A stretch of DNA of 63,908 nt, counting the filler, from Craspedostauros australis (Eukaryota), in NCBI GenBank assembly GCA_030167865.1. It is 13 parts of 13 records of this genome, joined end to end, with 100 filler letters (N's around TTAATTAATTAA, not from the genome) between each part and the next. Parts side by side here need not be neighbours in the genome. Positions count along the whole stretch, not along the records: positions 19,675 to 30,914 come from JALAGF010005212.1; 12 more parts are not named here. The stretch is one strand, 5' to 3'. Under the pieces are notes generated by a model. That model did not search any database and was not told the DNA's origin. It saw only the letters and a program-made list of their open reading frames with translations. Position 1 is the first letter of the stretch. Each line of letters begins with the position of its first letter. Of the stretch, positions 12,400 through 61,754 are shown piece after piece. The translations under genes were made by a program, and so were the position numbers.

Positions 12400-15300
12400 G
12401 AAAGCAACAGGCCAGGATCTCACCAACAAAAAAGGCGGTGTCAACTTGTCCCACAGAGAATGAGAACTGTTGGATTTGGAGCCACCAGCGGGAGCGAAAA
12501 TGGGGTGACATCCTCCAGGAACGCAACCTGCTGATCAGAGGGTCTGAACCCTTTGTGCACATGATGGGGGAAGAAGGNGCNATGGATGAAGTGCTGGCAT
12601 TTGTGAAGGACCTGGACAGGGCCCCTGAAAGAGGGNGCCTCTCTTGATGACTGGACGGGCATGTTTCACNATGTGTNCTTCAACAAGATGTCCGCAGGCA
12701 TGAACCTGCACATGGTCAAGCTGAGGGTCAGACTGGTTGCCACCTCCAACAAATTCTCTGGAGGGCTGTGGAAGTCCGAGCAGATCAAGGCAACACACAA
12801 GACAGCAGCNNNNNNNNNNNNNNNNNNNNNNNNNNNNNNNNNNNNNNNNNNNNNNNNNNGGTCTGAACCCTTTGTGCACATGATGGGGGAAGAAGGCGCT
12901 ATGGATGAAGTGCTGGCATTTGTGAAGGACCTGGACAGGGCCCCTGAAAGAGGGCGCCTCTCTTGATGACTGGACGGGCATGTTTCACAATGTGTACTTC
13001 AACAAGATGTCCGCAGGCATGAACCTGCACATGGTCAAGCTGAGNGTCAGACTGGTTGCCACCTCCAACAAATTCTCNGGAGGGCTGTGGAAGTCCNAGC
13101 AGATCAAGGCAACACACAAGACAGCAGCATGGATTGGTGTGAGGATGGCACTCATGATGGTCAAAGGCATGCCTCTGGACAACAAAAAAGAAGAACAGGC
13201 AAAATCCCCCAACCTGGTGGCAAAACAAGAAACAGTGAAAACTAAGACACAAGGTTGTGACGTTTCCGCACAAGCAGCCAAAACCGCAAGACCTCCACAG
13301 TGTGAATGATGTGATCAGCAAGTACCACAANNNNNNNNNNNNNNNNNNNNNNNNNNNNNNNNNNNNNNNNNNNNNNNNNNNNNNNNNNNNNNNNNNNNNN
13401 NNNNNNNNNNNNNNNNNNNNNNNNNNNNNNNNNNNNNNNNNNNNNNNNNNNNNNNNNNNNNNNNNNNNNNNNNNNNNNNNNNNNNNNNNNNNNNNNNNNN
13501 NNGTACCATGGTCCACAAGGGAGACCCTGAAACAAATTGTGGAGAGTCTCTATGCAAAGACGGGATCCATGATGTACAGCAGACTGTGGGTTGCTCATAA
13601 GCAGGAGATTGAAGCATTCGACGATGACAGTCCCCTGAGCATGGCAGCCATTCATTTTCGCAAGTCAGACATCCAGGAGCACAACATCGTTGCAGCCAGC
13701 TGGTTGTTTGGGAGCCACAGCACTACCAACACTGATGATCTGACCAAGGCAATCAACATGAGCNAACTNGTCCAAAACAAGTTCACAGTNCAGTTGAGGA
13801 TCCAGGAGATTCACCTTGTGAGAAAGCAAGGGCAACACCAGGTAGAAGGCGAAGACTACCGCAACAGACCGAGAGCGACACACGTCATGTGCGGAGAGTC
13901 GTGCTCGTTCCAATACCGAACAGACACGAAAGAACTCTTCAACAACTGTGCCAAAAAGGTCCGGTTGCTTGACAAGCAGATGCGGTTCATGCCTGACATG
14001 CTGAACCAAAGATTCCACCACCCCCTGGAGAACTTGCTAGTCTGAGCTCCATGGCAGCCCACCAGGTTCAATTCGAGAAGACTATGAAAACCCAAGGAGT
14101 GTACTTGATTGAACAGCTCGATGTGGAGTTGCCTATTTGGAATCTGACCCTGAGGGAGGTGATCATGAACCTCAGATCGTCCAGGAACCCAGACTTCGCT
14201 CTCTTCATGTCGATTGACACAGGCAGGATGGACCGCAACAGAACTGTCTTCGTATTCCATCCCAAACGGAGAATCTAAGTGCTGGGACCCATTTCGAAGC
14301 TCACCTTTTGCAGCAAGAAGCTTGACCATAATTGTCAAGGGTGGTTCACACGAGAGGTGTGGCCACAGAACCAGTATTATGAAGTAGACTGGGAGACAGG
14401 CCTCATTCGGAGCAAGGAGGAAATGGGAGATGGGGCAGCTGGTTCAAGCTGGTGGCAACTTCCTCGACCTCGATCCAGAGGAAATGGTGGGGCTCACCCC
14501 AGCGGACGTGGGGTGGGAAGGATACGTGGATAAGGACGGGAACATGAAACCTGTCCTGCTGTTGAAGTTTGAAGTGCAAATGGAAAGCAACCCCCACACA
14601 CAAAAACGGGGACAACAACACCGTAGGCACATTTGCGATGGCATCAGTGGTCCAACAAGCTGATCACATCGCGCAAGCCATCACGCGTACATCCCACCAC
14701 AAGACTGCCAACCCAGGTAGGTTCGCGACGGCCGCCGAAGCAAAACCGGATTTCGACTTGTCTGCCCCAGATAATACCATTCCAGAAGGAGATGACATGA
14801 GTGATGACAACAGTGACGACAGCGAGGAGGACAGCGAAGAAGATAGCAAGGATGGTAGCAGCAAAGAAGTGCATGAAAAGCAGGCATCCAAGTTAGTGGC
14901 CAAGAACAGCAGTGATGCCAAATCAGGTGGGTCCAACCTCATGGACACCAACAACCCAACAGGCAGCGTCCCCCAGAACGCAAGCCAAGAGTAAATAAAG
15001 TAAGAGTGACTAGTAAATACGTGGGAAGGAAGGGACTCAGCAAAAATCCAGCGACAAAGAAACCACAGGCACAGCCCCAACGAGAACGGCAGAAAACAAG
15101 CCAACACTATCAACAGGCAACAATAGGAACAGCAACAGCAGAGACACCAAAACACAACTCAGTCGAGCGCGCGACAACAACAGCAGCGACAACCATCTCA
15201 ACAGGCGGGAACACAGCGAAGGACCCAACAATACACACAGTATCCCCACCACCAACAGTAGCCACAGAGCCAACAGAATAAACAACAACAATGAAGAAAC

Positions 15301-15424
15301 AACGAGAAACGGCAAAGAGCACAATGGCAACAACAGAACCAGCAACAGTGACGTCAGCAGCACCTGTAACAGCTTGTAAAGAAAATACAAAAGTGCAGGG
15401 CACAACATCTACTACAACAAGACC

Positions 15425-15467
<43 letters not shown>

Positions 15468-16030
15468 TCAAACGCATGAGGGCTATCCAAAGAAGTAGGC
15501 CCACCATGCAGAGCCAGCAACCAACACCGAACGCAGGTGAATCACTGGGCGTAGGCAGTATGACAAGGCACCGCCGCTCGCCCGAAGAAATGGCAACATC
15601 AACAGCGAACAGCCACAACTTCAGGAGGAACACGAACCCACGCACAGCCAAGGCAGCTCAACCACCTAAAATACCCAGAATGACAAGGACGGAAGCAGAC
15701 CTGGCACAGGTCAGTGCTGCGGAACTCTAACGACATGACAAGGACCACACCAAAGTAAGTGGGCAAAACTATGCTTGTGGGGATGTGATGGCACACAAAT
15801 CCACCAAATCAATACGGATCGTGTTCCAGAACGTCTCTCAACCCCCACTTCTTGCATGCCAACTCAAGAACAAAGTTATCCTGGACTTTACAAAGCAAAG
15901 CGAAGTGGATATGCTATGCATGGCCAAGATAAATTTCAATTGGGACCATGTGCGCGCGGGTGACCAGTGGCAGGAACGGACCAGGCAAGCCTTACCAAGA
16001 TCGAAGCGTATCTTTGCCTATAACACCCTC
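12400..16030 (+). mobile_element. Decayed 5' portion of an Ambal-like non-LTR retrotransposon (ORF1, A/C-rich spacer, start of the APE endonuclease)
   Basis: 15785-16025 encodes KSTKSIRIVFQNV...KNK...EVDMLCMAKINFNW...WQERT...AYN. This aligns by eye with KSTSAIRLAAPNV...KNK...KIDVAMLSEIGINW...WKERT...AHN at 36950-37180. The upstream broken ORF (SWLFGSH...QLRIQEI...ATHVMC...MRFMPD) is in the ORF1 position. Confidence 0.7.
15426..15467 (+). repeat. (ACA)n microsatellite
   Basis: Direct reading of the CAA/ACA triplet run. Confidence 0.95.
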
Positions 16031-17049
16031 ATGACAGAATGGGCAACACACAGACCCACAGTAGCAACGCCTACGAGGAGAAGGAAACGAAGCTTATTAG
16101 TAGAATTAGAAAAAGTATTAGCATCAAGGAAATAGAGGTGGAGAGGGGACAGGTGTGATGCCATCAGATGATGATGGGTGTTCGACAACAACGCAAACCT
16201 CTGTTGCTCGGTTTTGTGGGTTGCGACCAGTCACGCCACTGGCCACTCGTTGGTTTTAGAAACTGTAGCGTTGGGAGCATTGCCGATACTCCCGGGATCA
16301 CGCAAACACGAGTCATTCTGGCCAGAAAAACAGCAAAAACTCTACAACTAGTGCTATCGGTTTGCCGAGTGAGTGAGGTGGAAGGTAGGATCAACGCAAC
16401 TGCAATGTACACATAGATCACTCCATAAAACTTAAAATGAAACCAAGTAGAAACTGAAAGGGCCCACCATATGTAAATAGACTACGAGGATTATGTATAT
16501 GCAATTAATTTTAAAATCCCAGAAATTTGATTAGGCTCTTGATTGCAAACAGTTGGTCGACTCACTGATCGGGCTCTTAGTGCCAATTCCCGAATCTGGC
16601 CGAATCCGAACAATGGGTGTCGATGGACAGACGATACCGCACAAACAACGAGCAGGATCCACACTGAGCAAATGACCGCCCTGCACGGACATAATTTTTC
16701 AGAACAGACAGGTTTCACCCCCCAATAGAGACTTCCTGAAACCCGAAAATTAAATCGTACGGACAACTCATAACCCAATACTGCGACATTTCGAGCCGGC
16801 CATGCCCAAAAACATTTTCGGGAAATGGCCATCTGGGGCTCTTTTTTTCGGGTTGGAGGAAGATCCCGAAATACCTTGTGTCCCGTGAAGCATCAACTTC
16901 CACGCGGAATCCATTCACAGCCCAAGGATCCACCAATAAAATACGCTTATTCGGAGGCTACCACGTTCTATGTAAAAAACTAGATCGGTACCTTGATTGC
17001 TAGTGCTATCGTTGGAACACTAAATATATGCTTTCCTATACTTCATCAT

Positions 17050-17290
17050 CTTCCGTGGTAGATGTCCCAAATTGCTTTGCAGATATGGACTCCTCAAAAC
17101 TTGAAGATCCGTTGCACCCTCTTGGGCGTGTTTCTATCTAGGTCAGTAATTTTATTTGTGGCCTTAAAGTGGCAGCAATATTGGCAAAGTCGTTTCTTGC
17201 CATCATCCTCGATGATGTGTTTGCGGTCTTCGTACACGACCATTAACCTTTCCTCGCTCAACACTGGTTGAGTGCTGCTCATCCTCCTCT
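17050..17290 (-). pseudogene. Possible remnant of a piggyBac-type C-terminal Cys-rich domain
   Basis: Translation KRLCQYCCHF...KRVQRIFKF*GVHICKAIWDIYHGR resembles the CxxC...C..C.V.LC..C...(F/Y)H tail of piggyBac transposases, with some Cys lost. Confidence 0.4.
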
Positions 17291-17881
17291 TCGTTCTTGC
17301 AGATGGAAACCTCTGGAAGAGGAAAGAAATGTATCCCCGAAGGCAAAAGACAACGACAGTTCCACCGGCTTTGCTGCGACAATCTACGTGCCACTGAACA
17401 TTTTCATTCCAGTCCCGCAGTCTAAATTCAATTCACGAGTACTTCAGGCTCGATAAGCAATAAGATGGCAGTAAGAAGTATAACACTTAAACATATAGTT
17501 GGAAAGCTGTGCTCAAGGGATTTCGAAAGATGTGAATAAAGTGTCATTGTACACGTAGAGTTGTCGTCAAAAATCACAATAACTGAAACTGAAAATGTTC
17601 TACAATATATCATATCGTCTAGTTCAGAAAGGGACAAACAAGTCGACAATCTCAATGGCAACGCCTCCGACGCAGATGAACAAAACGGATGAGACGGGTA
17701 CAGCTCAGGGATGCCGATGTGGATGTGAGGAACAAAATGTGGTAGGAGGTTGGATGAATGAGATGAAGGAGCACAGGAACCATTTAGAAATTACAATTCT
17801 CTTGCTAGTCTTGCATACGACCCCCTTGATTCGAACATTAGTTCACGGTCGGTGACGTCGGACATGTTTCGGGCCGTTATA

Positions 17882-18625
17882 TCCATAATGACGTTTTTCT
17901 TGCGTCCGGACGCATTCTCTACGTAGCTTGCGTCCGGACGCAAATTGAACGCTCAGTTTGCGTCCGGACGCAAATNNNNNNNNNNNNNNNNNNGACGCAA
18001 ATGCAAGCTCGCCGAAAATACCACTTGTACTACTTAAGTCCCATGTTCCTCCACGATGTCCCGTGTTGCAGAAAAAAAAACCGATTTCGGTCCGAAACCC
18101 GAAAGTGGGTTGTTTTTTTTCTGACTCCTTCGAGTAACACATTTATTTGGCGATTTTAAAAAAAAAAACCACGATACAGCACGGCGTCATTGGTCATGTC
18201 TCAGGGGTTCCTTTCCGTGCGCCTGTCTTGCTTTTCTGACGTCATGGGATCTGAGGTAATGAGCTTTTACTTTTTGATTTCGATGTCATCCACCACGATC
18301 CTGCCAACAACACCAAAATCCTGGCAACGGTGTAACACAACAAGGAGGGTGGAGCACGAATCATGATTATTGTTTGTTCAATTACCACAACTTTAGCGAT
18401 TATTATCAATGTAAGACATGAGTCATGTCGTGAGTCGAGATGGCCAGCGAAAAAGGGTTTGAAAAAAAAACGGCTTCTCGTAAAGCGTATTTGGGCTAGT
18501 CCTTTGAGTCGCTGCTTGCGTCCGGACGCAAATTGGCCCAATTTGCGTGGGGACGCAAACTGCACCTCCAATTTGCGTCCGGACGCAAGCTACGTAGGCC
18601 AGTACCAGGCCAAAATCATTATGGA
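17882..18625. mobile_element. MITE-like element with TA flanks and subterminal palindrome arrays
   Basis: Ends read TA|TCCATAATGA ... TCATTATGGA|TA. The palindrome TTGCGTCCGGACGCAA occurs at 17928, 17958, 18516 and 18573, with variants at 17900 and 18543. Confidence 0.8.
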
Positions 18626-18700
18626 TATGTAGACGTTATTGATAGTCACAGTGCGTGTCGTTTCGGGAAACTGGTTTCGGGTTTCAGGAAGTCTCTAATA

Positions 18701-19024
18701 CCTCCGGTCACGTGAAAAACCTGCACAAGAACAGCAAAGGGTTAAATTGGATCGATGTAGTCGGAAGCAAGAGGCTGAAACCTGAAAGAGATCGAAAATT
18801 GCGCATATCCATCGGTCCATAAAACTTAAAATAGGATATACATCAAAAATCGATCTGTTTTTTATTTGTATTAGATCTACAAGGATGTGAATATGCGCTT
18901 GGTTTGGATGTAGGAGAGATAAAGTTTGGAGGTCTATTTCAAACGGTTGGTCGACTCACTCACATGGGTCCTATTGGACAAGACCAGATGACCGCACTGT
19001 GCAGGTTTTTCACGTGACCGGAGG
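18701..19024. mobile_element. 324-bp MITE with perfect 27-bp TIRs
   Basis: CCTCCGGTCACGTGAAAAACCTGCACA (18701-18727) and its exact reverse complement (18998-19024). Flanked by TA on the left and TG on the right. The empty site is visible in the homologous arm near 16722-16735. Confidence 0.85.
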
Positions 19025-19674
19025 TGTTGGGGGGTGAAACCTGTCTGTTCTGAAAATTTATGACTGTGCGGAGCGGTCATTTGCTCAACGTGGATCCTAC
19101 ACGTGGTTTGTGCGGTATCGTCTGTCCATCGACACTCATTGTTCGGATTCGGCCAGATTCGGGAATTGGCACTAAATCTGCACACGCACCGGTCGATCGC
19201 CAGACGGTACGACCCAAATGATCCCAACACTCGTCACACATTTACAAATGTGTGACGTGTGTCCTCGCAGACGGACAAAGGCCAGACTGTGACACAGCCA
19301 ACCTCAAAACTTGTTCTGGCGGCACACGGAATGACGATCGTTGTGCGTGGGCTTCTGTTCGCATCAAAGCGCTTCGAAACCCGAAACCCGCGCCGCCGGA
19401 AATGGCAAGAATTGCCACCACCACAACAACAAGGGGGAAGACGCCACCGAATCAGAAGACAGCGCAACAAAACCTGAGTGTTGCGCGAATCTGGTCTGTG
19501 CGGGTGGCACAGCACAAAGACGCACAAACAGATTCGAACAGACACGAAGTTGAGGAGACCAAGAACAACAAGCCNNNNNNNNNNNNNNNNNNNNNNNNNN
19601 NNNNNNNNNNNNNNNNNNTTAATTAATTAANNNNNNNNNNNNNNNNNNNNNNNNNNNNNNNNNNNNNNNNNNNN

Positions 19675-20891
19675 TTCTGAAGTATAGCCTCAGGGCATTG
19701 GAAGTGGTAGTGTAGTCGCCAATGATCCTGGCATTTGCAGGGCCCACTGAGATTGGCTTCCCCTTGAGCTTGGAGGTTCAGATCACATCATTTATCTTTC
19801 CAGTTCTGGCTGAGTGTGCAGAGAAGTATCTGAGAGGGTAGCCTGCATGGTAGCACAGCTTAGCAAGGCTGTTGCAGNNNNNNNNNNNNNNNNNNNNNNN
19901 NNNNNNNNNNNNNNNNNNNNNNNNNNNAGTGTGCAGAGAAGTATCTGAGAGGGTAGCCTGCATGGTAGCACAGCTTAGCAAGGCTGTTGCAGATTGTTTC
20001 AGTGTTTGCAACTCCAAACAGGTAGCCTGGATGCTTCTACTTCTGCATGCTGTATGCCCTGAGATACCTCCTCATGGCCACTGAGGCTTCAACACTCAGC
20101 ACTGCCTCCCTGGGGGTCATGTCTGTCTCAGCTCTCTTCTGTGATTTGAAATAGATCACATACTGCTTGGTGGTCTTGTTGTAGGATGGCCACTTCATAG
20201 CCTTGCTGACTGCTGCCTTGCCTCTTGCTCCAGTTTCAAATAGGAAGAAGAGCAAAGCAATATCCCTGCAACCAGCTGGGGTGAGTGGTGCAGCTTGTTG
20301 GAGCCTCATGATGTCTGGTCAAGTGAGGGGCTCTGATCTCTGGACATTCTGGGCTGGTCTGATGTTGATTCGTTTGAGGTTGTGGTAGATGATGGAGAAT
20401 GTAGATGAGCTTTCAGACAGTGCCGTGAGCCCTGTAGCTGCGTTGTGGATATTGCTCCAGGAGGGGAACCTCTTGTGGATCTCATTATAAGCCCTCTTTG
20501 CATCCTTGGCCACAATGGTGTGGAGGCTGATGATTGGCACCCTGTAGAGAACAGCCCATGTGATGTACAGGGAAAGGCAAGCTCCCAGGTGATCTCCAGG
20601 GAACACTGCCTCCCAGGTCTCATGTAGGGTGAAGTCCATTGGCTCTCTGGCTGGGTCGTGGTCTGGCCTGTCATCTGGTTGGTCTTCATCTTCTTGACTG
20701 GTGTGAACGAAGAAAGCAGCCACTAGCTTCTCCATTCTGTTCAACTCTTGTTTTTCCTTGGGTGTGAGATACATCTGAGGATTTTGCATCACTGTATTGA
20801 AGAAGTTGAGCATACCATCTGTACCTGGAAGCCTCTGGTCTGGTGGCACATCAGTGACATCCATAGTGGCAGTGTTGTTTTGTTGTGCCAT
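19675..20891 (-). pseudogene. Tyrosine recombinase family, copy 1 (in-frame stops, 3' end lost at scaffold edge)
   Basis: Motifs RDIALLFFLFETGARG, YFKSQKR, AGYPLRYFSAHSARTG and RIIGDYTTTSNALRLYF. Stops at about 20320, 20038 and 19779. Confidence 0.88.
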
Positions 20892-21014
20892 GATGACTTC
20901 TGGATTGAAATGTGCCTGTTGGTTGCTATTGGATAGAAGCAACCTGGCTGGTTCCAGGGTGGTAGGGATGAAGGTGGATGGCTTGTTGCTGGATGGATGT
21001 AGTGGCTGGGCAAG

Positions 21015-21222
21015 AGCTGGGATGGCTTGATGCTGGATGGACTCAAGCTGGGATGGTCAGTGGTGACTGTACACAAGCTGGGATGGCTTGATACTGCATG
21101 GAGACGAGCTGGGATGGCTTGATACTGGATGGAGACGAGCTGGGATGGCTTGATACTGGATGGGGATGAGCTGGGATGGTCAGTGGTGCCTGTACACAAG
21201 CTGGGATGGCTTGATACTGGAC
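21015..21222. repeat. Minisatellite-like tandem repeats (core GCTGGGATGGCTTGATACTG) upstream of YR copy 1
   Basis: About eight GCTGGGATGG-anchored units, with a higher-order duplication (TCAGTGGTG.CTGTACACAAG occurs twice). Confidence 0.85.
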
Positions 21223-21900
21223 GGAGGCTGTCCCAAGCCTGCTTCGCGTTTCCGGTTGGATGGTCGTTGTTCCATGAGTTGTTGAAGATCTCTGAGGCTA
21301 CCTTTCCGGCATCAGTTGAAGTGTCAATACACATCAGCAAGAAGTTGAAGGACTTCTTTGCCCTCTTGTAGTCCGCCTTGGTCTCTGCTGTTGATCCTGA
21401 GAGCTTCACCATCGCTGCAGTTGGGATTTCATCGATCCCAAGGTAGATGTTGTCCAGGTCCAGCAATGATGCATTCGCCATGAAGCGCATCTCCCAGTAA
21501 CGCCAACCATCCTGCTTTCCATCGAATAGAATCACTCGGAGAGATGTTTCTCCTGTCGTAGATGTTTCAGTCATCATGGTGTTGATCACTTGCTGTCTTG
21601 CTTCGATTCTTTTCCTCCTGCTTGCTCACTGACTTGCTCAGTTGATTGCTTGCTTCTCTCTGTCTCACTGACTCGTTTTCAGTGAAGTGCCAGCTTCTCT
21701 TGGGTATTCCTCTTTCCTGTTGTCTGATCTTGTATTCAGATCAATTCGGATGTGACTGTCTCTCTCTTGTTCTGGATCTGTACTGATGTTGGTTCAGTTA
21801 CAATCCCTGCTCAGCTTCCAACTGTCTTGGGCTGATCTTGTCTGTCCTGAAGTGGTTTCTTTTCTGCCACTTCGAAGTGTGTTAAGAAATCCACTTGGCG
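21223..21900 (-). mobile_element. Ty1/copia gag N-terminus with 5' leader, truncated
   Basis: LRVILFDGKQDGWRYWEMRFMANA...GKVASEIF...PTGNAKQAWDSL fits a copia gag pattern. It ends abruptly at the minisatellite. Confidence 0.75.
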
Positions 21901-22340
21901 TAAATTGAGAGTCCTTGTTTCACACAAATTGTGCTGTATTTTTATTTTGTTTTGTTGTTGTTCTTGTTTGTTGTTCTCGATGGCAAATTATGAGACCAAG
22001 ATTTCCATCTTGTCACACAATTTCCCATCTCCACTTTTGCATTCATACTCTACATTCATTGTTCCACTTGTAAAATTCTCTTCACCTGTTGTGCCACTGA
22101 CATGCTGCTGATCTTCATTTGGTATGGCATTACCTTGCTGCTGATCTTCATGCGGTTTCATAGTATCTGTGATTCCCAGCACAGAATCACTTGCCCCATC
22201 AACAGGAGATTGACTGTGAGCCACTCCATCGATCTGTCACCCACAACAAGCAAAGCTGATCCTAGCTGAACCACCATTGCAATACACCACACTGGAACAC
22301 ATCACAACGTATCGCAACAAGCCACACCAAGTTGCATCAC

Positions 22341-22413
22341 AACACAAACACAAACACAAACACAAACACAAACACAAACACAAACACAAACACAAACACA
22401 AACACAAACACAA
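22341..22413 (+). repeat. (CAAACA)n microsatellite upstream of YR copy 2
   Basis: Direct reading; it produces the spurious HKHKHK stretch in the ORF track. Confidence 0.95.
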
Positions 22414-22444
22414 CACGGCATATCACAGCACAGTACATCACACC

Positions 22445-24241
22445 ATGACTGACTGCAACACCAATGCCAACATGGCTGAAAAAGCCAACAATGCCAACCC
22501 AAGGGATGATGATATCATGCGTGAGTTGCTGGATGATCTCTTTCCAGACACTCACACCATGTTTGGCTTCTTTAACATGGTGAGGGTTGATCCACAAATC
22601 TTTCTGCGCCCCAAGGAGAAGCAAGAACTCCACAGGATGCGCAAGCTGATTGATGACTTCTTTGAGCACAACGACTGGGAAGATATTGTCTTCAAAGACC
22701 ATCGAGCAGACAACAATCCCAACCGGGATCCTGTGGACTTCACCAAGCAGCAAACATGGGAGACAATGTTCCCCAATGATGCATTGGGTTCCTGTCTGGC
22801 ACTCTACATCACCTGGGTGGTACTCTATCGTGTACCAACAATAAGCCTGCTGACCATCGTGGCCAAGGATGCTCAGATGGCCTTCCATGAGATCACTCAA
22901 CGCTTCAAGGGTTGGACCGACACCTACAACGCGGCTGCAGGCCTCAAGCAGCTTGGAAAGGACTCTGAACACTTTGCCATCGTTTACACGAACCTCAAGC
23001 GGATCTGCATCAGGTCAGCACAGAATGTGCAACGAGCAGAGCCAATCACCCTCCCTGACATCCGGCGTCTACAGCTTGCAACACACCCAACACCAAATGG
23101 GTACTGTGACATTGCTCTTCTCTACTTCCTCTTCGAGACAGGAGCAAGAGGAAAGGCCGCGGTGGGCAAGGCAATGAAATGGCCAAAGTACGACCACAAT
23201 ACCAAGCGCTACATCATCTACTTTGCCTCCCAGAAGAAGGCTGAAACAGACATGGCACCGCTAGAGGCTGTACTAACCGAGAAAGCTTCAGTGGCAATGG
23301 CAAGATTCCTCAAAAGCCACAAAAACCAGCTTTGGAAGCATCCGGACAAGCTCTTTGGAGTTGCAAGCACCAAAAGGATCAACAACATCACAAGCAATCT
23401 CTGCCTCCTTGCGGGGTATCCCAAGAGGTTCTTCTCTGCCCACTCGCCTCGCACAGGCCGCATCGATGATGAAATGTGCAAGGCCAAGTTACACAAACTG
23501 CCAATATCCTCTGGTGATGCCGATGCTCGCATCATTGGGGACTATACCACCACCTCCAATGCAATGCACCTCTACTTCCACAGTCTCTCTGACAGAGCTG
23601 ACATGTATGTGGGCCAGATTGACGACATGTCAGAACTGACAGTTGAGCAGCTGCATCCAGAACTCAAGGGGAAGCTTCAGCCCATTGTGAGGCCTCACTT
23701 CCTCAAGTCCAGCAGCGCCATGACTGCAGAGATGCGGGAGCATGACATCAACAATGCTCCCATCCTTTCCAAAAGCCTCTGGTGGTTTGTAGATGGGGAC
23801 AAGGAACATGCGGGGTACGCCGCCAACCTTTTGGTTCTCAATTGTGACAGTTGCATCACGTTTGGTGATGCAGGCTGGCATGTGGAAGTCCACACCAATC
23901 ATCCGATACTTCTCACCAGGAGGCCTCCACACTTGTGTTGTGTGAAACACCTCTATGGTTCGACGAAGTTTGCAGAACTGTGTGACACGTTGCTCCTCTG
24001 GAAGGTTGAAGAAACGTTGAAACCTTGCAGTGATGGGGGGGCCACTGGGTGGATCCTTGTGTGGGGGGCGACACTGGCTCAAGTTTCACTCCAACATATC
24101 CAATGTCGCGGTTGGAGTCACTGTCCACAACATCGGAATCATGGCTTGAAGCATCCGACATGCTCTGGACACTGCTGTCAGTATCCTCTGCAGCATGGGG
24201 TTGAAGCTGGGGTGTGCTTGAGTGCCCTCTGGTGGTTGTGA
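22445..24241 (+). CDS. Tyrosine recombinase (phage-integrase fold), copy 2; open through the catalytic domain, unrelated tail after about 23740
   Basis: DIALLYFLFETGARG (Arg codon 23147), SQKK, FSAHSPRTG (HxxR, His codon 23441), IIGDYTTTSNAMHLYF (Tyr codon 23573). Likely ATG at 22445. Similarity to copy 3 stops after AEMREH. Confidence 0.88.
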   Translation: MTDCNTNANMAEKANNANPRDDDIMRELLDDLFPDTHTMFGFFNMVRVDPQIFLRPKEKQELHRMRKLIDDFFEHNDWEDIVFKDHRADNNPNRDPVDFTKQQTWETMFPNDALGSCLALYITWVVLYRVPTISLLTIVAKDAQMAFHEITQRFKGWTDTYNAAAGLKQLGKDSEHFAIVYTNLKRICIRSAQNVQRAEPITLPDIRRLQLATHPTPNGYCDIALLYFLFETGARGKAAVGKAMKWPKYDHNTKRYIIYFASQKKAETDMAPLEAVLTEKASVAMARFLKSHKNQLWKHPDKLFGVASTKRINNITSNLCLLAGYPKRFFSAHSPRTGRIDDEMCKAKLHKLPISSGDADARIIGDYTTTSNAMHLYFHSLSDRADMYVGQIDDMSELTVEQLHPELKGKLQPIVRPHFLKSSSAMTAEMREHDINNAPILSKSLWWFVDGDKEHAGYAANLLVLNCDSCITFGDAGWHVEVHTNHPILLTRRPPHLCCVKHLYGSTKFAELCDTLLLWKVEETLKPCSDGGATGWILVWGATLAQVSLQHIQCRGWSHCPQHRNHGLKHPTCSGHCCQYPLQHGVEAGVCLSALWWL

Positions 24242-24830
24242 CAGCATGGACTTCTGAGTCTTGCTGCATGGCTGTGACTATGCTCCTTGTTGGTTCTCTT
24301 TTCTGTGTTGGATATGTTGTTGCTGTGGTTGTGGTTGTGGTTGTCAGAGGTGGATGTCGTGGTGTCCATGTTGTCAAGTGGACGGAGCTTGGCTCCAATC
24401 TTTGATTGAGAGATCTGATGGGGCTGGCCATCCACTTTGTTGCATTTGCAATGTGCAAACCACACATGTTGGTGTGTATCACAAACAGAGAAAGGCAAGG
24501 GGTGAGACGTGGGTGGAATGGCAATGTTGTACGCAAATGATGCTTGATCACATGGTGGTCAGAGAACAGAGGCTTCAGCACACACATCAACACAGAACCA
24601 CTTCAACCACATGTGCACTTACTGTGGAACAAGTTCCTTTTGACCAAACTTCGTTTGAAGTCACATAGAGTCCGAACATTTTTTTTGGAATCATACTTGC
24701 GTAGAAATGAATGGTGGAGATGCAGAGGTTCTGGCTCCCAGTTCCATTTTGTTGGGTCGTCAATTAGTGCCTTCATCAAGGCAGCCGCATCAGGCCCATC
24801 TTTGTAAAAGCGGACATCAGAGCCCACCAT
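23745..24830 (-). pseudogene. Fragmented unknown coding sequence abutting YR copy 2 tail-to-tail
   Basis: Protein-like pieces MVGSDVRFYKDGPDAAALMKALIDDPTKWNW..., an acidic linker, and RFQRFFNLPEEQRVTQFCKL...MIGVDFHMPAC...FLVPIYKPPEAF. No family recognised. Confidence 0.4.
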
Positions 24831-24879
24831 TGTTGTGTTGTTGTTGTGTGTGCGTTGGTGTGAGGTGTTGTGTGTTTGT

Positions 24880-25101
24880 TATCAACATCTAGATCGAAAT
24901 TAGGTACCCATCTCCCATGACTAAAACATGATTCACTATTTTTGATTCGACTCGATTTGAGAGTATAGTCGAGTGAGTCTTGATTACACGATTGAGATTC
25001 AGTCACTACAGTCATCGAACCTGACGTAGGCACTGGCATCATCGTATGACGCCAGAGGATCGGTCATTGTGATCCTCGGAATCAAGATTATATTTTAGTC
25101 A
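24880..25101 (+). repeat. LTR-like dispersed repeat; related copy at 30706-30830
   Basis: TCAACATCTAGATCGAAATTAGGTACCCATCTCCCATGACT versus TCAACATCTAGATTGAGATTAGGTAACATCACACATGACT; both also contain AGTATAGTC. Ends in CA, followed by a PBS-like TGGTATG at 25102. Confidence 0.5.
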
Positions 25102-26141
25102 TGGTATGCTGACTTGTCTAGCAAAGCCGAGTGCATCATTGAGCACGTGGCAACAACATTTAGGATCCAGAACAACATCGTCAGAGGTGATGCATGCACC
25201 TCGTCGACGTAGACGGATCAATCCATATGTGATCAAACAGAGATCAAGATTAGGCAAGACCAGGAGAGATGAAGAAAGACCCAAGGGCAAGAATAACACG
25301 AGATATCGTGTAAATCAACATGCCATCTTGGGCAATGTTTTAGGAAAGACTGCGAGAGAAACCACGAGGTAATCGAGCAGCACGTTAGCAACCGTGCAAT
25401 AGGCACCATCATTAGAAATAGGAGATCATCATCTCATAATTCAAACTCAATCATCAATTGACTACAACTAACTTAGAACAACAACAAACACCAAACATCT
25501 CCAACTTCACCTATCGGATTCATCCACCACCAACCACACACGTGAAGTACTCCCAAGAAGGGAGGAATCAAACTTCCCAACCGATCGTGGAGTTTCGCAC
25601 AAGACAGACATGTCATCTTGGTCCCCAACGAACGAATGCAGTCAACATACTGAACGAAAACATGGAGAATGTTGCAGCAGGTGTGACAGATTCATGTTGT
25701 GATGGAAGAATGTCTCCACGAACAGGCTGAACTCGACAACTTTAATGTCTGTTGGCAATCGGGTGTACAACTTTGTGGTGATATCCATTATTGCCGCACC
25801 TCCCAATCAAAGTATCACGATTGAATAGAATCAACTCATGTTGATCCCACTTGGACTACCTTGTTACCTGACCACTCCCACATATGCCACCCCTCATGTA
25901 TGGATGGCTGCAGTCCCATGACATGGCTGACTGCAGGGTGAGGAGGGGGGAAGGACTCGCACTGCCACAACAAGTGATACTCACATATCCCCCAGCCCAT
26001 GCACATGCTCCATGAAAACAATGTGGAATGCACATATACATTGATGGTAAGTACTGCTAGTTGGTTATGCATATAGTTGCCACTGGTTTCATTGCTTTCA
26101 TCACCTTGGAACACTGCAATGGTTTTCTCCAACTTCTCTTT

Positions 26142-28700
26142 TTACATCTTGAGAACCCAGATCTGTTGGAGAAGAGAAGTATATCCTTTCATGTGCTCCT
26201 GCATCACTGTGTTGGCTGTTTCAAGGCCAGTGCGCTTCTGCTCAAGCTTCTCTATCTTTCTGCGTTGCTTTCGTATGCTCTGTTGCATGTTCTCATTCAT
26301 TGTTGCAGCAACTGACATGGTTGCAATGTGTTGGGCATGAGGTGCAGCCCTGGTTGCCCTGTGTGGCCTCTTCAAAGGAGATGCAGAGTGTGAAATGATG
26401 GCAGATGGTTTTCCGCCATCATCTTCACTGTCAATGTCATGAATTTGGATCATCTTGGGGAGACATGAAGCAAAATGGGAAGAGTTGTTGTCATCACTCT
26501 CCACCTCAGATGAGGAAGGAATCAATGACTCACCAGAGCCACCAGTGGAATTCACAGGATCCATCCAGCCTTTGTCCCTGCAATCATCTCCTTCAGAGGA
26601 GGAGGACTTCATATCATCATGCTGTGGAGATTCAGGCTTCTGTGGTGGTCTCCTTGGAACATCAAGATATGTCTCTTCTTTTTCCTCCTCATCAGAAGGC
26701 TCATAGTTGGGGCCTCCTCCCATGACCCAAACTGGTTCTTCATCTTCCTCATCAGAAGGTTCATATATGGGTGCTGTGGCTTTGGCAACCTCCTCCTCTT
26801 CTTCTTCATCAGATGATTCATAGACTGGGGCAGTGACTTGATCTGCCACCTTGGCATCTGGTCCTACTTAATGGAAAGCTGTCTCATGCACATTCTGGCC
26901 ACTCTGCTTTGCTTGCTTTGTCATGGCCTCCTGGTTGTCAGTGAGCTTGGTTGCATTGTACTGTGTGGATGCCACCATGACAATACCCTCTGTACCAATT
27001 TGGAGCCTGTTCTTGAGTCCTTTGATGTAAAGCTTGATGTTGGTTGACTCCAAGGCATCAAACTTGGTCTTGGGTCTCTTGATGAACTGTCTCTTGTCTC
27101 CCTTGTTGAGCCTGGGCAAACTGAAGTACATCAGCATGTGTTCACTGGCCTCAAGCATGGCATATTCTGCCAACTTCATGAGCTTGTTGATGGTGAGCAC
27201 ACCAGTTGCCATCATGAACCTCAAGCACCTGCCAACACTTCTGAAATGATCTGTGCCCATGCCTGTCTTGATGGCCCTTCCAATTTCATAGGTGGAGTTG
27301 CCAAGGTAGTCACAGTCTCTCATTCTTTTTACCAGAGTCCACCAGATATGAGAAGGAACCTCCTTGCCTGTCATTCCCTCCATGGTGACCTTGGTGGGTG
27401 AGTCTGACTTGAGGCAATTGACCATTTCAACCAGTTCTTGTCTCATGTTTTCAGACAAGGTATTGGCTGTGACCAAGTGATATAGTCTGACCACAGGGAG
27501 CAGCTTGCCCTGCAACTCTGGATGAAGCTTCTCCACTGTCAGCAGGTCCACGGAATCATTTTCCCAACATACATATCAGCTCGATCTGACAAGCTTCTGA
27601 AGTATAGCCTCAGTGCATTGTTGTGGTGGTGTAGTCTCCAATGATCCTAGCATCAGCAGGTCCCACAGAGATTGCCTCACCCTTCAGCTTGGAATTGCAA
27701 ATGATATTGTTGATCTTTCCTTTTGCAGCCGAATGAGTAGAGAAGTATCTCTCAGGGTATCCTGCATAGTAGCAGAGAGCTCTGATGTTGTTGCAAATCT
27801 GTTCAGTCTGGACAATACCAAAGAAATAGCCAGGGTGGTTCCACTTCTGCAGTCTGTATGTTCTCAGATATCATCTCATGGCCACAGAGGCTTCAACACT
27901 CAGCACTGCCTCCCTTGGTGTCATGTCAGTCTCTGCCCCGTTTCTGTGACTTGAAGTAGATGACATCCTGTTTGGTGTCTTTGTTGTACATGAGCCACTT
28001 CATTGCTTTGTCAATGGCTGCCTTGTCCCTTGCTCCAGTTTCAAAGGGAATGAAGAGCAGAGCAATATCTCTGTATCCATTGGGTGTGGGAGGAGCAGCT
28101 TGTTGCAGCCTTCTGATGTCAGGGGGTGTGAGTGGCTCTGACCTCTGTACAGCCTGGGCTGGCCATATGTTGATTCTTTCTAGGTTGTGGTAGATAATGG
28201 AGAAGTTTGGGGAGCTGTGAGAGAGGACCTTGAGCCCTGCATCTGTATTGTTGATGGTGCACCAGTCTGGGAACCTCTTGGAGATTTCATTGTATGCCCT
28301 TCTGCATCCTTGGCCACAATGGTGTGGAGGCTGATGGTAGGGATTCTGTACAACACAGCCCATGTGATGTACAGAGCCAGGCAAGCTCCCATTTGATCTC
28401 CAGAGAGCAGTTACTCCCAGGTCTCATGTAGGTTTAAGTCCATGGTGTCTCTGTGTGGGCCTTTGTCTGGCCTGTCATATGGTAGGTTTTCACCTTCATG
28501 AGTGCCGTGAAGGAAGAAATTATCCACTAGCTTCTCCATTCTGTTCAACTCTTGTTTCTCTTTGGGTGTGGGGTGCATCTGTCGATTGTCCTTCACAGTG
28601 TTAAAAAGTTGACCATCCCATCAGTGCCTGGAAACCTTTCCTCTGCTGGCACATCAGGGGCATCTGCATTAGTTGAATTTGTTGGTTGTGTTGTGATGAA
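26142..28700 (-). pseudogene. Tyrosine recombinase family, copy 3, frameshifted, with a long C-terminal extension
   Basis: Motifs TPKEKQELNRMEKLVDNFF, GACLALYITWAVLYRIPTISLHTIVAKDA, GYRDIALLFIPFETGARD and RIIGDYTTT/NALRLYFRSL. These continue into LTVEKLHPELQGKL and about 220 further residues, then an acidic YExSDEE repeat region and a coiled coil. Confidence 0.85.
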
Positions 28701-29754
28701 TGATGGCTAGAGATGTGTTGGTTAGTTGCTACTGGCTATAGACAACTTGGCTGGTTTCAGGCTGGTAGAGAGGAAGTGAATGACTTGTGGATGACTTGTG
28801 GATGACTTGTGGATGGCTGGGGACATGGTGGATGGGTGGTGCTGGCTTGTGGATAGCTAGGGATGATCTGGATTGGTGGTGCTGGTGTGGCCTGTAGAAG
28901 GATGGACACTAGCTGGGTGGCCTGTTGGTAGTGGGACACAAGGTGGTCTGAAAAGTGAAATGGCGCGTGCTGGTCGATTGCTGTTGTTGTTGGTGTTGTT
29001 GTTCAGGACTGGGTCCCATGGGGAGTCAGTCACAGTTGTGTCCGCTCACAATTTGGGATCGATGCCTGTCACAAAAGCATTCCGACAGTGCCAGCTTTTT
29101 CAGGGCAACGAGCTCATGGAACTCATGGAACTCATGGGATTCTACACAATGAAGCACTAGATCTACCACATTCCTCCCCCCTTCCCTTGCTTGCCACAGA
29201 AATCCACTTTTGGACATCATTGCATCTCATATTCATGCTGATAAGTTTCATAGTTCACCAACTTGCACCATTGCTCCAATCACCAGCATACATACTGTGC
29301 TCTGACAGCCCAAGCACACATCCCACGAAGCGCGATCAAACACTCCCAAACGCACCAAAAACGCCAAGGAAACGAAGAAAATCAACTTCATCAAGACAAA
29401 AAATACAGCAATAATCACCAAAAACACGGCAACGAGCCCTCGTTCTCTGACCTACTGATCAGGCAGCAGGCAGCAGGCACCAGGCACCAGGCATCGAGCA
29501 TCAGTCGACAGGCTACAGGCAACAACATCAAGAACAAAAAACGGCAAAAATCGACGAAAAAAAAACACAGCAACAGCGAGCATCAACAACAAGTAAGTCG
29601 TCTCGAACAGAAACACTCTCTCAAACACAGCCCATCACAACACATTGCATCGCACCGTATCTCACTGTATCTCATTTTATCTCTTTGCATCTCTTTTCAT
29701 CTCATTGCATCTCAGTAGTAAAATATAGAGACGCACTGAAGAAAATTGAACAAA

Positions 29755-30293
29755 ATGAGTCAACCCCACCTGTCCCCACAGAAGCACTTGGAGTCGGAGG
29801 AGGCCACTGTCATTATCATTGACGGAGAAGATAGTTTGGGCATGGAGAAGACCTTGTCGGTGTCTGCGCCGAGGCTTGTTGCATCAAGCCGAAGCGCACC
29901 TACGACATGAGGGGCATCGAGTTTGGGATGCCCTTGGTGGATCGCCGTATGGCCAAGAAGGCAAGGTTCTCTCCACCAGAGAACCTTGAGGACAGCATTG
30001 ATTCGGATGAGGAGAGCTACTTCAGTGCACCATTTCATGAAAAAATCATGAATGCCACTGCAAGAAGCACCGGAACGGGTACATGCCTCAACTGCGGCAG
30101 TGTGGGTTCAACCAGAACCATCTGCAAGCACTGCATTCAGCTCCAAATGCCACCGGAATACATTAGGGTTAGTGAGGCATCCAAGATGATGGACCTGGCC
30201 CCATTTGAATCTCAATATGCCAAGGCATCCGTTCTTGATGACCCAATCGGATACTTTTCCGACAGCTCAGAAATGACCAGTGAGAGCATTTGA
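29755..30293 (+). CDS. Small hypothetical protein with CxxC-x9-CxxC (possible Zn ribbon); 5' part possibly frameshifted
   Basis: GTCLNCGSVGSTRTICKHC lies in ORF 29907-30293. An upstream ATG at 29755 follows a pyrimidine-rich intron-like tract. Confidence 0.35.
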
Positions 30294-30830
30294 GAATAAC
30301 ACTAGAGCCCCCACAATATGTCTGAAGACTTGCTGTTGTTTGCTGTTGGTAGAGTCTTGATTGCAGGCTGTCCAGATGTGTTTTCTTCTGTGCACAAGTC
30401 ATCAGTTGAGAGGAAAATTGATCAGTGAAGAAACCTGCGGATTGTGAGCATCGACGCTCTGATTCTTGTTGGTGTGGTACTTTGTGTTGGTTGCCCTCGA
30501 AAAGGGGTCTTAGGGATGCATACCTCCAGTACCATGGGATCCTCCCTTTGTCAAGCTGGGAGCCAGACAAAGCTTTACTGATGTGTGCAGCCGCATGGTG
30601 CTGTTCTCTTGGTGAGAGACCAGGAGTATTGGCAGGAAGGAGTTCCAATGAACAGGTCATTGGAACCCGTTTTCTCTGGATCTCTTGTTATGCCCGATCC
30701 AAATGTGTCAACATCTAGATTGAGATTAGGTAACATCACACATGACTGCAGCATGTTTCAATCTGATTGATAGTATAGTCAGTCAAGTCCTGATGATGCA
30801 ATGATGCCTTGATACAACTGTCATCCCAAA

Positions 30831-30914
30831 TGCCATCAGTGGGTGCCATCAGTGGGTGCCATCAGTGGGTGCCATCAGTGGGTGCCATCAGTGGGTGCCA
30901 TCAGTGGGTGCCAT
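30831..30914 (+). repeat. 13-bp tandem repeat (TGCCATCAGTGGG) x6.5, running into a gap
   Basis: Perfect head-to-tail units with no spacers. Confidence 0.95.
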
Positions 30915-31526
30915 NNNNNNNNNNNNNNNNNNNNNNNNNNNNNNNNNNNNNNNNNNNNTTAATTAATTAANNNNNNNNNNNNNNNNNNNNNNNNNNNNNN
31001 NNNNNNNNNNNNNNTGGATACAGAAGGTGAACTTCAAATGGCGAGTACTCATGGAGTAGGAGCCAGTACTGAATGAACGGAGTGTTGAATGCGGAGTACG
31101 TATCGAACACGGAGTATCGTGCGCGACGAGTACACGATGTTGAGAGAGAGAGAATACAGAGAAGAGCGAGAGAGCATCTCGGGCACCGACTCATAGTCGG
31201 AGACCGAATCTACGAAACAGATTGAAGCGCTGAGAGCATCGGGCGAGAGGACGGCGTACACCGAGAGCATTGGAGTAGCCAACTAATGAAATAGCAAACA
31301 GAAGACTAACAGCCAACACCATCTTCCACGATCGTAGGTTACCGTGCGCGGAACTTGCCAACAGACCAGAAGGGCGCTGTTAAGCAACGGGAGAAGCCGC
31401 CACACTCGAGGACCATGTTGGTCTGGCATGCGATCTTGCCACCTACACGTGGAGGCCAACGTGCGCTGTTGATGCGAACCCAAAAGAAGTGACAAATTTC
31501 TCATTAGGGATATACTCCATTCGTAC

Positions 31527-34500
31527 AAATAAATAAATAACTCAATGATTAGTCTCTTAATCGACTGCGCCGACGGCGCTTTTCTCCGCCCCTTTGCAAC
31601 TGCCCGCCACGCGGGCAGAGGGCACGGAATCTGTGTTGTTGTGTTGAGTTTCGTTTGTATCATGTATGGTGGGAGAGAGGGGTTGGCCTGACTACGGCTT
31701 CCGGCTATTTCGGGCCTGGAGATTGATCCACTTGAGCAGCGCCCCGGAGGCCACTGCCGTGCGTAGCCGAGCCGCGGCTTGCTCTATCCACACGAGATGC
31801 GCCTCCACCGGAAGGTCGTCCGAGGGTCGGGTGGACAACTGGCGGTCGTATTGGCCAGGTGTACGCCGGAGCTGGTCCTCGAGCGAGGCTGTTCTGGCGC
31901 GTACTTCGGCTTCCATAGCGCCTTCTGCCGAGGTCTCGCTGTGGAACATATCCTCGTTTCTGGAGGACCATTGCTGCCAGGCGATATGCCATATGCGCCG
32001 TGTGACTTGCGCCGCCCATTTCAAAGCCGACTTCCTGGAGCCTTGTGCGTGCAAGAAAGCAGATTGCGCCTGCCTCCAGTGTGTGGCCAACATCCCGCGC
32101 AGCATAGACTGGGGGCCTGCAGACGACTGTTGCCGCACTGCTTCCGCCAGCTCTTCTCCCGCGTTAAATGGGACCAGGCAGTGGGTGCCTCGCATCTGGC
32201 TGAGTAGCATCTGCATCATCACGTGAACCATCGCAGGCTGAGTTGGGTATGCGAGCAGCCACTGTCTGAGCTTGGCCACCTGCCCGTCCGCGATCGATTT
32301 CCGTGTCGGCGACTGGCATGTCCAGAAGTGCATCGTCGTCTCCTCGCTGGTACAGCTGGGGCATTGGGCGGAGTTGCGATGTTTCCACTGCAACATTCGA
32401 CGCCCGACTGCTGCCTCACCTGTTACCAGCTTGAACGTCAACGTGCGCTTGTTCCGGTCTAACGTCGTCATGGCTCGCCCTACAGCTTCCCAGTCGACGT
32501 GCCGCGCTTCCACGACCACCTTGCGCCTGGTCAGGACCCGTATCACCGCATCCTGCGTGTGCTGGCTGGTGATGGAGGCGTATGACACGGCCGTGACCTT
32601 GGATTGCAAAAACACTGCGATGCGTTCGCCCTTGATAATCCCTGAGTACGGGCATTGCTGTCGGGTTTGCCGCTGGCATGCTCCGGCGAGGTGATCGGCT
32701 TCCACATTGAGTTTGGCCCACAGGTCTAGCCGGTTCCACGGGATACCTTCATCCTGGTGGCCTTTGACGTGCTGACCCCGAACCTGGATGCTGAGGCCCT
32801 GGCAACGGGCTCGCACCGCGCGTTGCAGGTCAGAGTCGGTCGTCGCCGGATTGAGGTACCACTCAAGATCGAGAGCATTCAGGGCGCCGGTGTTGTCGCA
32901 TGCAACGGTGACGCTGCCTGCGGTGATGTCGTACACCCGGCAAACGGCTTCCAGTACCACAAGAACGCTGTACAGCCCGGCGAGCTCGGCTCGGTGGGAC
33001 TGCATGGTTCCGTCGGTGGCTGGCGTCTGCCCCGCGATCCACAACTTCGATGTTCTGTGGCCGTCGGTAGCCGATATCACTGCCCCGGAGGCGCCGTTGC
33101 CGTGTGCCACTGATCCGTCGCTGCAAGCTTTCGCAGTGCCGTCCTGAATGGCTTTCGCGAAGACGTCTTCTTCTCCCATGACATCCCAATGCTGCACTGC
33201 CCACTTCTCGTTGTCTCCTAATTGTTGCAGAGCTTCCCGAAGATTCGCTGGCCGCTGAGATGCCGCTGGTGCAATGCCGTCAGCCGACTCCGTTACCACC
33301 AGTCTGCCTCGGCGCATATAACCATCCGCCAGCTGCCTGCCGACTATGGTCGTCGTCCCGGACAGCAAGTATTCCTGGGTCCGCCTGCGTCTTGGAACCC
33401 GGCTGTACTCCTCACCCGTTTGGACGCGTACCACTCTGTCTGACTCCGGGTCTTTCCGCAGTGCTGGGACTAGAGACGAGAACCGCAGCCAGCGCCCGAG
33501 GGCCGGTTGGATGTGGCTTACTCCTGGGCTGGACTCAGGGAAGCATTTCCTCAGCGCGTCTTTCCACATCCTCCATTTGGCCGCTCCCGGTGGCCCGACG
33601 GGCGGCCACTTGATGCTGGACTGCCGCATCGGTATAAGACCCGGCTTCCCCGCGTTGGGGTGCAGCTGTGTGCCTCCTACTCGCGCTATGTCAGAAACCC
33701 AGAAGACTTGCTTGGCGATTCTGCATTGATTGATGGCCTGCATTGTCTTGACGTTGAGACCCATTGCGTTGAAACGCTGCATGATGGGCGCATCTCCCTC
33801 CCGGGGAAGAGAAATCACAGGGTCCTCCATTACCATGGTCATGCCCAGATGATTGAGCTCCTGCCACACACTTTGGATCCACGTGCCAGTTGTGACATGG
33901 CGCCATTCGTTCCAATCCTCGTTGTAGAATTCAGGGATGCCGACTTGTAGCGCGACTTGTTCCATGGTGTTGCGGAGCAGCTTCCCGGTGAGAGTAGGCT
34001 GGCCCCAGTGCCGGATGATCATGTCGATGTGCCGTGCGATCTGAGAGTAGTAAAGATGCGGAACTCCCATCCCCATGGCTGCCGCCGGCCCGTGTACCAG
34101 GTCCCTGGCCACGTTACGCTGCACGCCTGCCGCCGGTAGGGCCGCCCTTAGTGCTGGTCGCATGATGCGCTCGGCTTCAGTTTTTGTGAAGGTGGAGCTG
34201 GCCAGAGGGTATTCGATGGTCTTCCATATGGTTGCCTGAAGTGCCACCCACGCCTGATGCCGCTGCAGTCGGCTTCGCCCGATCTTATCGGCCCACGCTT
34301 GCGACTTTTGAACGTAGAATTCGATGTTGCTTGCTTGAGCACCGTCGTGCCGGACCATTACTCCCAGCGCCCTTCGTGCTTGTTGGACATCCAGCCTGGA
34401 AAGTGTCGAACGCTCCTCCTGGTCAGGCTTGCGTATGCTGATGGATCCGGGGAACTTGGCAGCCGGTACATACTCCCATGCACTGTCTGACCAGTTGAAG

Positions 34501-56915: not shown

Positions 56916-57015
56916 NNNNNNNNNNNNNNNNNNNNNNNNNNNNNNNNNNNNNNNNNNNNTTAATTAATTAANNNNNNNNNNNNNNNNNNNNNNNNNNNNN
57001 NNNNNNNNNNNNNNN

Positions 57016-58459: not shown

Positions 58460-58562
58460 TGGNNNNNNNNNNNNNNNNNNNNNNNNNNNNNNNNNNNNNN
58501 NNNNNNTTAATTAATTAANNNNNNNNNNNNNNNNNNNNNNNNNNNNNNNNNNNNNNNNNNNN

Positions 58563-61654: not shown

Positions 61655-61754
61655 NNNNNNNNNNNNNNNNNNNNNNNNNNNNNNNNNNNNNNNNNNNNTT
61701 AATTAATTAANNNNNNNNNNNNNNNNNNNNNNNNNNNNNNNNNNNNNNNNNNNN

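Follow-up and report, generated by a model that had tools for sequence, protein, structure and literature searches.

On a single contig of the eukaryote Craspedostauros australis (assembly GCA_030167865.1) lie three old and diverged copies of a stand-alone tyrosine recombinase gene, and the balance of the evidence leans somewhat towards their being the remains of a Crypton-type DNA transposon that encodes a recombinase only. The contig, JALAGF010005212.1, is 11,240 bp long and occupies positions 19675-30914 of the window, that is, of the whole stretch of 63,908 nucleotides that was analysed and whose numbering is used throughout. The window is a chain of separate contigs joined by 12 identical artificial linkers (N44-TTAATTAATTAA-N44, with stops in all six frames) and includes 2,633 N in total; because the linkers are artificial, gene order is meaningful only inside one contig and linkage across linkers is invalid. 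Two of these linkers, at 19575-19674 and 30915-31014, bound the recombinase contig. An earlier note on this DNA, whose feature begins at the first base of the contig (19675), had described three diverged recombinase homologues, oriented -, +, -, within about 9 kb of one scaffold. The homologues, their orientation and their spacing are borne out, and all three do share one real contig; the word scaffold fails only for the window as a whole, which consists of contigs that were joined artificially.

Three copies of a recombinase gene on one contig

When the open reading frame (ORF) of copy 2 was searched against the window with tBLASTn, it matched exactly three places, namely itself, copy 1 and copy 3. 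Copy 1 (19675-20986, -) is a pseudogene that begins with an ATG at 20891 and comprises the N-terminal domain and the catalytic domain up to the active-site Tyr motif SNALRLYF, with 57-63% amino acid (aa) identity to copy 2 over 20906-19679 (-; E 4e-116). It is interrupted by three in-frame stops, and its 3' end is lost where the contig ends at the linker. A frameshift is apparent at 19878-19927, where the recombinase contig has its single internal gap (50 N), and is an assembly artefact, the same 65 bp being repeated on both sides of the gap (19813-19992). A similar gap of 50 N elsewhere in the window (4630-4679) has exact duplicate flanks of 64 bp; such unmerged overlapping contig ends mimic frameshifts.

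Copy 2 (22445-24241, +) is an open ORF of 598 aa, of which the homologous part is encoded at 22445-23743 (aa 1-433). The last approximately 165 aa are without relatives, and the C-terminal domain that is typical of the family (described below) was not found on the + strand past 23743.

Copy 3 extends over 26871-28788 (-). The N-terminal and catalytic domains of this pseudogene (27435-28788, -) run through frames -3/-2/-3/-2/-1, with four frame changes and two in-frame stops, and match copy 2 over three frames at 39-73% aa identity (28608-27435, -; E 3e-68). Box II of copy 3 reads THSAAKG, in which the Arg is replaced by Ala, while the Tyr motif NNALRLYF is kept in a shifted frame. From the LHPEL motif on, copy 3 also retains a C-terminal domain (26871-27575, -) homologous to aa 502-715 of P0001, a relative introduced below; in tBLASTn this match covers 27542-26904 at 25% identity over 222 aa, within a linked set of high-scoring segment pairs. 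Directly past the stop that ends this domain, in the same frame, lies an acidic, coiled-coil ORF (26145-26867, -), such that the two are adjacent stop-to-stop ORFs. The acidic ORF has no match in Pfam and, judging from its position, perhaps once formed an acidic tail on the protein of copy 3; such a tail is present in the relative P0005.

Copies 1 and 3 share 78% nucleotide identity (19675-20986 versus 27595-28788), compared with 65-68% between copy 2 and either of the two. The motifs that had been quoted for the family (PKEKQEL, LYITW.VLYR.P.ISL.TIVAKDA, FETGAR and FSxHS) occur in all three translations. The R...HxxR...Y layout, which had been attributed to all three copies, is present in copies 1 and 2 but is broken in copy 3 by the loss of the box II Arg. 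Thus, copies 1 and 3 are dead, and copy 2 keeps both Cre-like domains without the C-terminal domain.

Predicted fold and active site

The structure prediction that the earlier note had proposed was run on copy 2 with AlphaFold, and with an alignment of 26 sequences it reached a predicted local distance difference test score (pLDDT) of 88.2 and a predicted template modelling score (pTM) of 0.75; the same prediction with only two sequences (pLDDT 39.6) was useless. The ten best matches of this model in a Foldseek search of the PDB are all Cre (best E 2.5e-7, approximately 350 aligned columns). A structure search independent of Foldseek (VIA-align, 48,161 chains) likewise placed Cre at the top, with a Z score of 17.9 over 283 residues, a root-mean-square deviation of 4.6 and both domains aligned, followed by XerA (14.7), XerH (12.8), lambda Int (11.8) and Flp (9.3). 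Crypton derivatives scored lower in the same search: QRICH1/DUF3504 reached a Z score of 7.0 through its N-domain only, and Ndc10 reached 6.0 and 4.8. The impression that the recombinases are phage-like rather than Crypton-like, originally drawn from their motifs, therefore agrees with the fold (Cre 17.9 versus QRICH1/DUF3504 7.0 and Ndc10 6.0). On the evidence of this model, the window proteins do belong to the tyrosine recombinases and have a Cre-like two-domain fold, and the N-terminal domain previously noticed as shared among the copies corresponds in the model comparison to a Cre-type core-binding domain.

The best PDB sequence match of the 26-member profile is XerA (E 0.11), aligned at the box I Arg and the beta-hairpin Lys; the single-sequence search returned RAP1B as its only PDB match (E 0.33), which is spurious. 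No Pfam family matches the window proteins significantly, and the Phage_integrase family (PF00589, cut-off 27.1 bits) gave no match to them at E<=1 or to the core of copy 2 at E<=5. The catalytic set of copy 2 reads R235, K264, H333, R336, Y367 (at the W position) and Y377. Among the 26 members the first Arg is conserved in 22, the Lys in 21, the box II His in 12 and the box II Arg in 19 (with Lys in three more), while 21 have W, F, H or Y at the W position and 22 have the nucleophilic-position Tyr. In the subclade of the window copies the W position is occupied by F or Y.

A small recombinase family of microbial eukaryotes

A profile search run exhaustively against 1.84 billion protein representatives revealed 61 relatives at E<=1e-3; 23 of these reach E<=1e-10, and 10 reach E<=1e-30. 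When copy 2 was used in a word-indexed search of 5.8 billion proteins, a single relative was found, P0001 (743 aa, 33% identity); with the family alignment instead, there were at least two matches. The full-length members share one order of parts: a variable N-terminus of low complexity, acidic or basic, is followed by the Cre-like helical core-binding domain, the catalytic domain with its R-K-H-R-(W/F/Y)-Y residues, a conserved ELTVEQLHPEL linker and finally a C-terminal domain of approximately 220 aa. This last domain is a conserved feature shared by P0001-P0006, P0010 and P0011 and has no match in Pfam or among PDB sequences.

All 61 representatives were scanned against Pfam at E<=0.01, and none carries a reverse transcriptase (RT), RNase H, gag, DDE transposase or peptidase domain. 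PF00589 exceeds its cut-off in four of them, all distant (P0047, P0048, P0049 and P0052), and falls just below it in four more; one representative has a WW domain. Crypton-derived Pfam families, DUF3504 and DUF3435 among them, have no match in the 61 representatives or, at E<=5, in the 26 members.

The sources looked up for 30 clusters are ENA, JGI/IMG, Logan, NCBI (two) and MMETSP (two), none of them informatively named. The two MMETSP relatives are more distant (E 1e-7 to 3e-9) and are complete ORFs on marine protist transcripts of approximately 2 kb that encode the recombinase alone. The gene of P0006 is likewise alone on its 3.3-kb contig (L001). That contig ends in a perfect tandem array of five 21-bp units (3190-3308), located 400 bp downstream of the P0006 ORF, and in each unit a 6-bp spacer separates two inverted arms of 5 bp (AGGAT TGGTTT ATCCT). 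A contig search with P0006 also returned L002, a false match that proved to be a bacterial rfb-type locus.

Searches among viruses and metagenomes were without success. A pattern scan of low sensitivity gave 13 pattern matches in IMG/VR viral contigs, none of which is a relative, and the pattern scan of metagenome contigs gave 155 pattern matches, again with no relative. No relative was found by tBLASTn in 50,697 phage records. In a library of viral structures the model matched generic phage integrases only (best E 1.7e-5), no better than Cre. Taken as a whole, this is a small, undescribed family of microbial-eukaryote tyrosine recombinases for which Pfam has no model, where CryptonS, the stramenopile group of Cryptons, enters the comparison by its description only.

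Phylogeny and selection

A tree of 301 columns was built from the three copies and from the 35 of 62 candidate relatives that span the core; the remaining 27, which were too short or did not match, were excluded. In this tree the window copies group together as a single clade (support 1.0), within which copy 1 pairs with copy 3 (0.94), and P0001-P0004 are the sister group of the window clade (0.85).

The ratio of nonsynonymous to synonymous divergence (dN/dS, Nei-Gojobori) is 0.13 between copies 2 and 1 and 0.15 between copies 2 and 3, in both cases with a saturated dS of approximately 2.5, and 0.23 between copies 1 and 3, with a dS of 0.77. Differences between the copies at third codon positions are approximately twice those at positions 1 and 2. 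These ratios together with the third-position excess indicate that the lineages diverged while coding and that the disabling mutations came late. Such divergence suggests a resemblance, by analogy, to co-existing transposon subfamilies.

Flanking DNA and linked genes

Terminal inverted repeats (TIRs) and split direct repeats were not found on the contig, in agreement with what had been noted before. Inverted repeats around copy 2 (21767-22006 and 25151-25494) were considered as TIRs and rejected, their arms being of low complexity and not collinear. Tandem arrays accompany all three copies: 6.9 units of 31 bp lie just upstream of copy 1 (21015-21225), GGATGG-rich arrays with 11-bp and 40-bp units lie upstream of copy 3 (28776-28885), and an (AACACA)12 array lies beside copy 2 (22341-22413). 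The upstream arrays of copies 1 and 3 align weakly (approximately 60-65% identity), and it is speculative that the arrays might bind the recombinase. A 65-bp segment recurs, at 78% identity, in the DNA 3' of copy 2 (24882-25104) and far out on the 5' side of copy 3 (30708-30771), and a pair of 18-bp inverted repeats 154 bp apart (24915-24932 and 25087-25104) overlaps it; the shared segment with its repeat pair may be a small repeat resembling a miniature inverted-repeat transposable element.

Linked genes that would point to a retroelement or a larger element are lacking as well. No Pfam match reaching the curated cut-off was obtained for the 71 other ORFs of at least 70 aa in 13668-31783, the sole Pfam row among them being a sub-threshold DUF7139 (E 0.0027), and RT, RNase H, gag, peptidase, capsid and DDE transposase domains are absent from all 71. 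The claim that no RT or RNase H is linked to the recombinases is thus upheld in these 71 ORFs, in the 61 relatives and on the contig of P0006.

A gag-like ORF fragment (21200-21577, -) adjoins copy 1 upstream on the same strand and is not common to copy 2 or copy 3. Its only leads, DUF4219, Retrotran_gag_3 and gag_2 at 0.86-0.88 in Atlas, point to a Ty1/copia gag; there is no Pfam match for these families at E<=1 and no homologue in the protein search. Its similarity to a copia-like contig of the window (58310-58438; 15 of 43 identities, E 0.069) is not meaningful. The fragment is probably neighbouring debris of Ty1/copia type that lies outside the recombinase unit.

Nature of the recombinase copies

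The reading as a Crypton-type element, to which we give slightly better than an even chance, draws on features that the analysis shows: the fold as predicted, the residues of the active site, the presence of several copies without RT, and purifying selection followed by recent decay. As far as the account of Kojima and Jurka (2011, PMC3212892) describes them, Cryptons have no TIRs or long repeats and are usually present in very low copy number. The copies in C. australis agree with this in having one large recombinase ORF without RT, no TIRs or long repeats, a low copy number and decayed copies. The same account characterises the CryptonS elements of stramenopiles, whose hosts include oomycetes and the diatom Phaeodactylum, by a conserved C-terminal region, by the lack of GCR1_C in its description and by the common terminus TATGG, of 5-6 bp (PMC3212892). 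With CryptonS the present family shares, by description only, a conserved stretch that follows the recombinase on its C-terminal side and the lack of a GCR1_C domain. Unlike in CryptonS, TATGG or other terminal repeats of 5-6 bp were not found at the limits of homology, and unlike in the Cryptons compared, no C48 peptidase gene was found on the contig. Differences from CryptonA and CryptonI (DUF3504) and from CryptonF (GCR1_C, Ndc10) are greater, as no Pfam similarity is detectable and the structural scores of QRICH1 (7.0) and Ndc10 (6.0 and 4.8) are far from that of Cre (17.9).

In its predicted core-binding and catalytic domains and in its R-K-H-R-W/Y-Y active-site layout the family instead resembles Cre, XerA and XerH. 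It is unlike Cre in its 14% identity, eukaryotic host, long low-complexity N-termini, LHPEL linker and C-terminal domain of approximately 220 aa, and no prokaryotic or phage sequence relative was found (50,697 phage records).

If the copies are remains of a Crypton-type transposon, we infer that the enzyme would have bound paired recombination sites at the ends of the element, that the element would have been excised as a circle via a 3'-phosphotyrosine intermediate and a Holliday junction, and that the circle would then have re-inserted by recombination at a short matching sequence. According to PMC3212892, no study of Crypton transposition existed at the time.

Several observations weigh against a transposon. 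The Cre-like structure is predicted, not solved, and none of the three copies is both full length and intact. Alignment of the flanks, which had been proposed as a way to define termini, did not do so for the copies on the contig: similarity between them is limited to the ORF and approximately 100-250 bp of repeat-rich upstream DNA. Discrete shared ends, target duplications and empty sites were not found for the three copies on the contig, and neither were short terminal direct repeats at consistent positions. The motif TATGG occurs there six times on the + strand and three times on the - strand (as CCATA), compared with approximately 11 expected per strand, and never at the homology limits. 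The three copies sit together in 9 kb of a single contig, as local duplication of a host gene might also leave them, and strong purifying selection suits a cellular gene family equally well. The earlier proposal of an RT-less tyrosine recombinase transposon is thus upheld for the RT-less recombinase and not for the transposon ends, as none are shared among the three copies.

A bolder version of the transposon reading can be put forward only tentatively. The family might represent a deep lineage of recombinase-only mobile elements in marine protists, derived from Cre/Xer enzymes independently of Cryptons F, S, A and I and marked by the new C-terminal domain and the ELTVEQLHPEL linker; the subterminal arrays might then serve as binding sites, and copy 2 or relatives such as P0001 might still be active.

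Rather unlikely, in our judgement, is a family of host recombinase genes, possibly domesticated, in which local duplication and inversion left copy 2 as the retained gene beside two pseudogenes, with a role in cellular rearrangement or DNA binding. The three copies inside 9 kb without common non-coding termini would suit such a history, as would the dN/dS values of 0.13-0.23, which denote long-term selection on the protein, and the complete transcribed ORFs of distant relatives in marine protists (MMETSP). Domestication of Crypton recombinases is, moreover, well documented, to judge from the treatment in PMC3212892. However, copies 1 and 3 are dead and copy 2 is without a domain conserved in the family, a pattern that resembles transposon decay and not a maintained gene. 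The catalytic residues are mostly kept among the 26 members, whereas domesticated proteins with DUF3504, a domain that is Crypton-derived (CryptonA/I), have lost them according to the same description (PMC3212892). The patchy and rare distribution, with 61 representatives among 1.84 billion, likewise argues against a host gene family.

It is improbable that the recombinase served as integrase in some larger element (for instance a polinton-like virus, a virophage, a giant-virus fragment or a large cargo element) that integrated repeatedly and site-specifically at one attachment site and then decayed. Polinton-like viruses and virophages do use simple tyrosine recombinases of Cre/Xer type for integration; as far as PMC12220804 describes them, these enzymes bring circular DNA into the genomes of protists, and no target-site duplications arise. 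Site-specific integration would account for the clustering of the copies, and within the viral structure library phage integrases come closest to the model. Unlike these viral systems, the 11-kb contig carries no capsid, ATPase, polymerase or other viral or above-cut-off Pfam domain, and the copies are 1.5-2 kb apart, which leaves no space for viral genomes. Neither the IMG/VR scan, with the low sensitivity stated above, nor the tBLASTn search of phage records gave a relative; the viral structure matches are generic and no better than Cre; and relatives lie on single-gene contigs or transcripts of approximately 2-3.3 kb. Three other relatives, P0001, P0067 and P0016, are encoded on ENA contigs of 10-15 kb.

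Very improbable, and largely refuted, are remnants of DIRS, Ngaro or PAT elements stripped of RT and RNase H, for although DIRS-group recombinases are also of a simple XerC/D-like type as PMC3537659 characterises them, and the gag-like ORF (21577-21200), which immediately precedes copy 1 on its strand, could pass for a leftover gag, DIRS1, Ngaro and PAT carry gag, RT/RNase H and inverted or split direct repeats, whereas the contig has no RT, RNase H or such repeats, the 61 representatives have no RT, RNase H or gag, the gag-like piece is missing from copies 2 and 3 and leads to Ty1/copia, and the transcripts of the two more distant relatives encode the recombinase alone.

Other features of the window

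At its far end (30831-30914) the recombinase contig consists of a perfect tandem repeat of 6.5 units of 13 bp (TGCCATCAGTGGG), which probably caused the assembly break. Many of the joined contigs are short (1.4-3 kb). On a contig of its own lies an open ORF of 1,771 aa (31692-37007, -) from a long interspersed nuclear element (LINE), that is, a retrotransposon without long terminal repeats; its RVT_1 domain is above the cut-off (E 1e-9) and its endonuclease match is below it (Exo_endo_phos_2, E 2.4e-4). A Ty1/copia-type pol fragment with RVT_2 and a retroviral SH3-like domain occupies 54724-56967 (-) on a short contig, and the ORFs of nearby short contigs (57016-62675) have no Pfam match and may be further repeat pieces. 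Two adjacent stop-to-stop frames of 602 and 315 codons at 4324-7080 (+) have no Pfam match at E<=0.001; the first of them starts in the N of a linker and hence is partly spacer, and this is possibly another repeat-encoded protein. An ERCC4 gene and a WD40 gene are located elsewhere in the window on other contigs.

Implications

The copies at this locus are old and damaged, and the finding mainly adds a family; it reveals no new mechanism. Cryptons are among the least understood mobile elements of eukaryotes, and the present family, seen in marine protist transcriptomes and in metagenomes, could be used to ask whether Cre-like enzymes of eukaryotes mobilise DNA via circular intermediates. It is also a possible source of new site-specific recombinases, and its definition as a sequence family would aid the annotation of genes that are now labelled only as 'hypothetical protein'.

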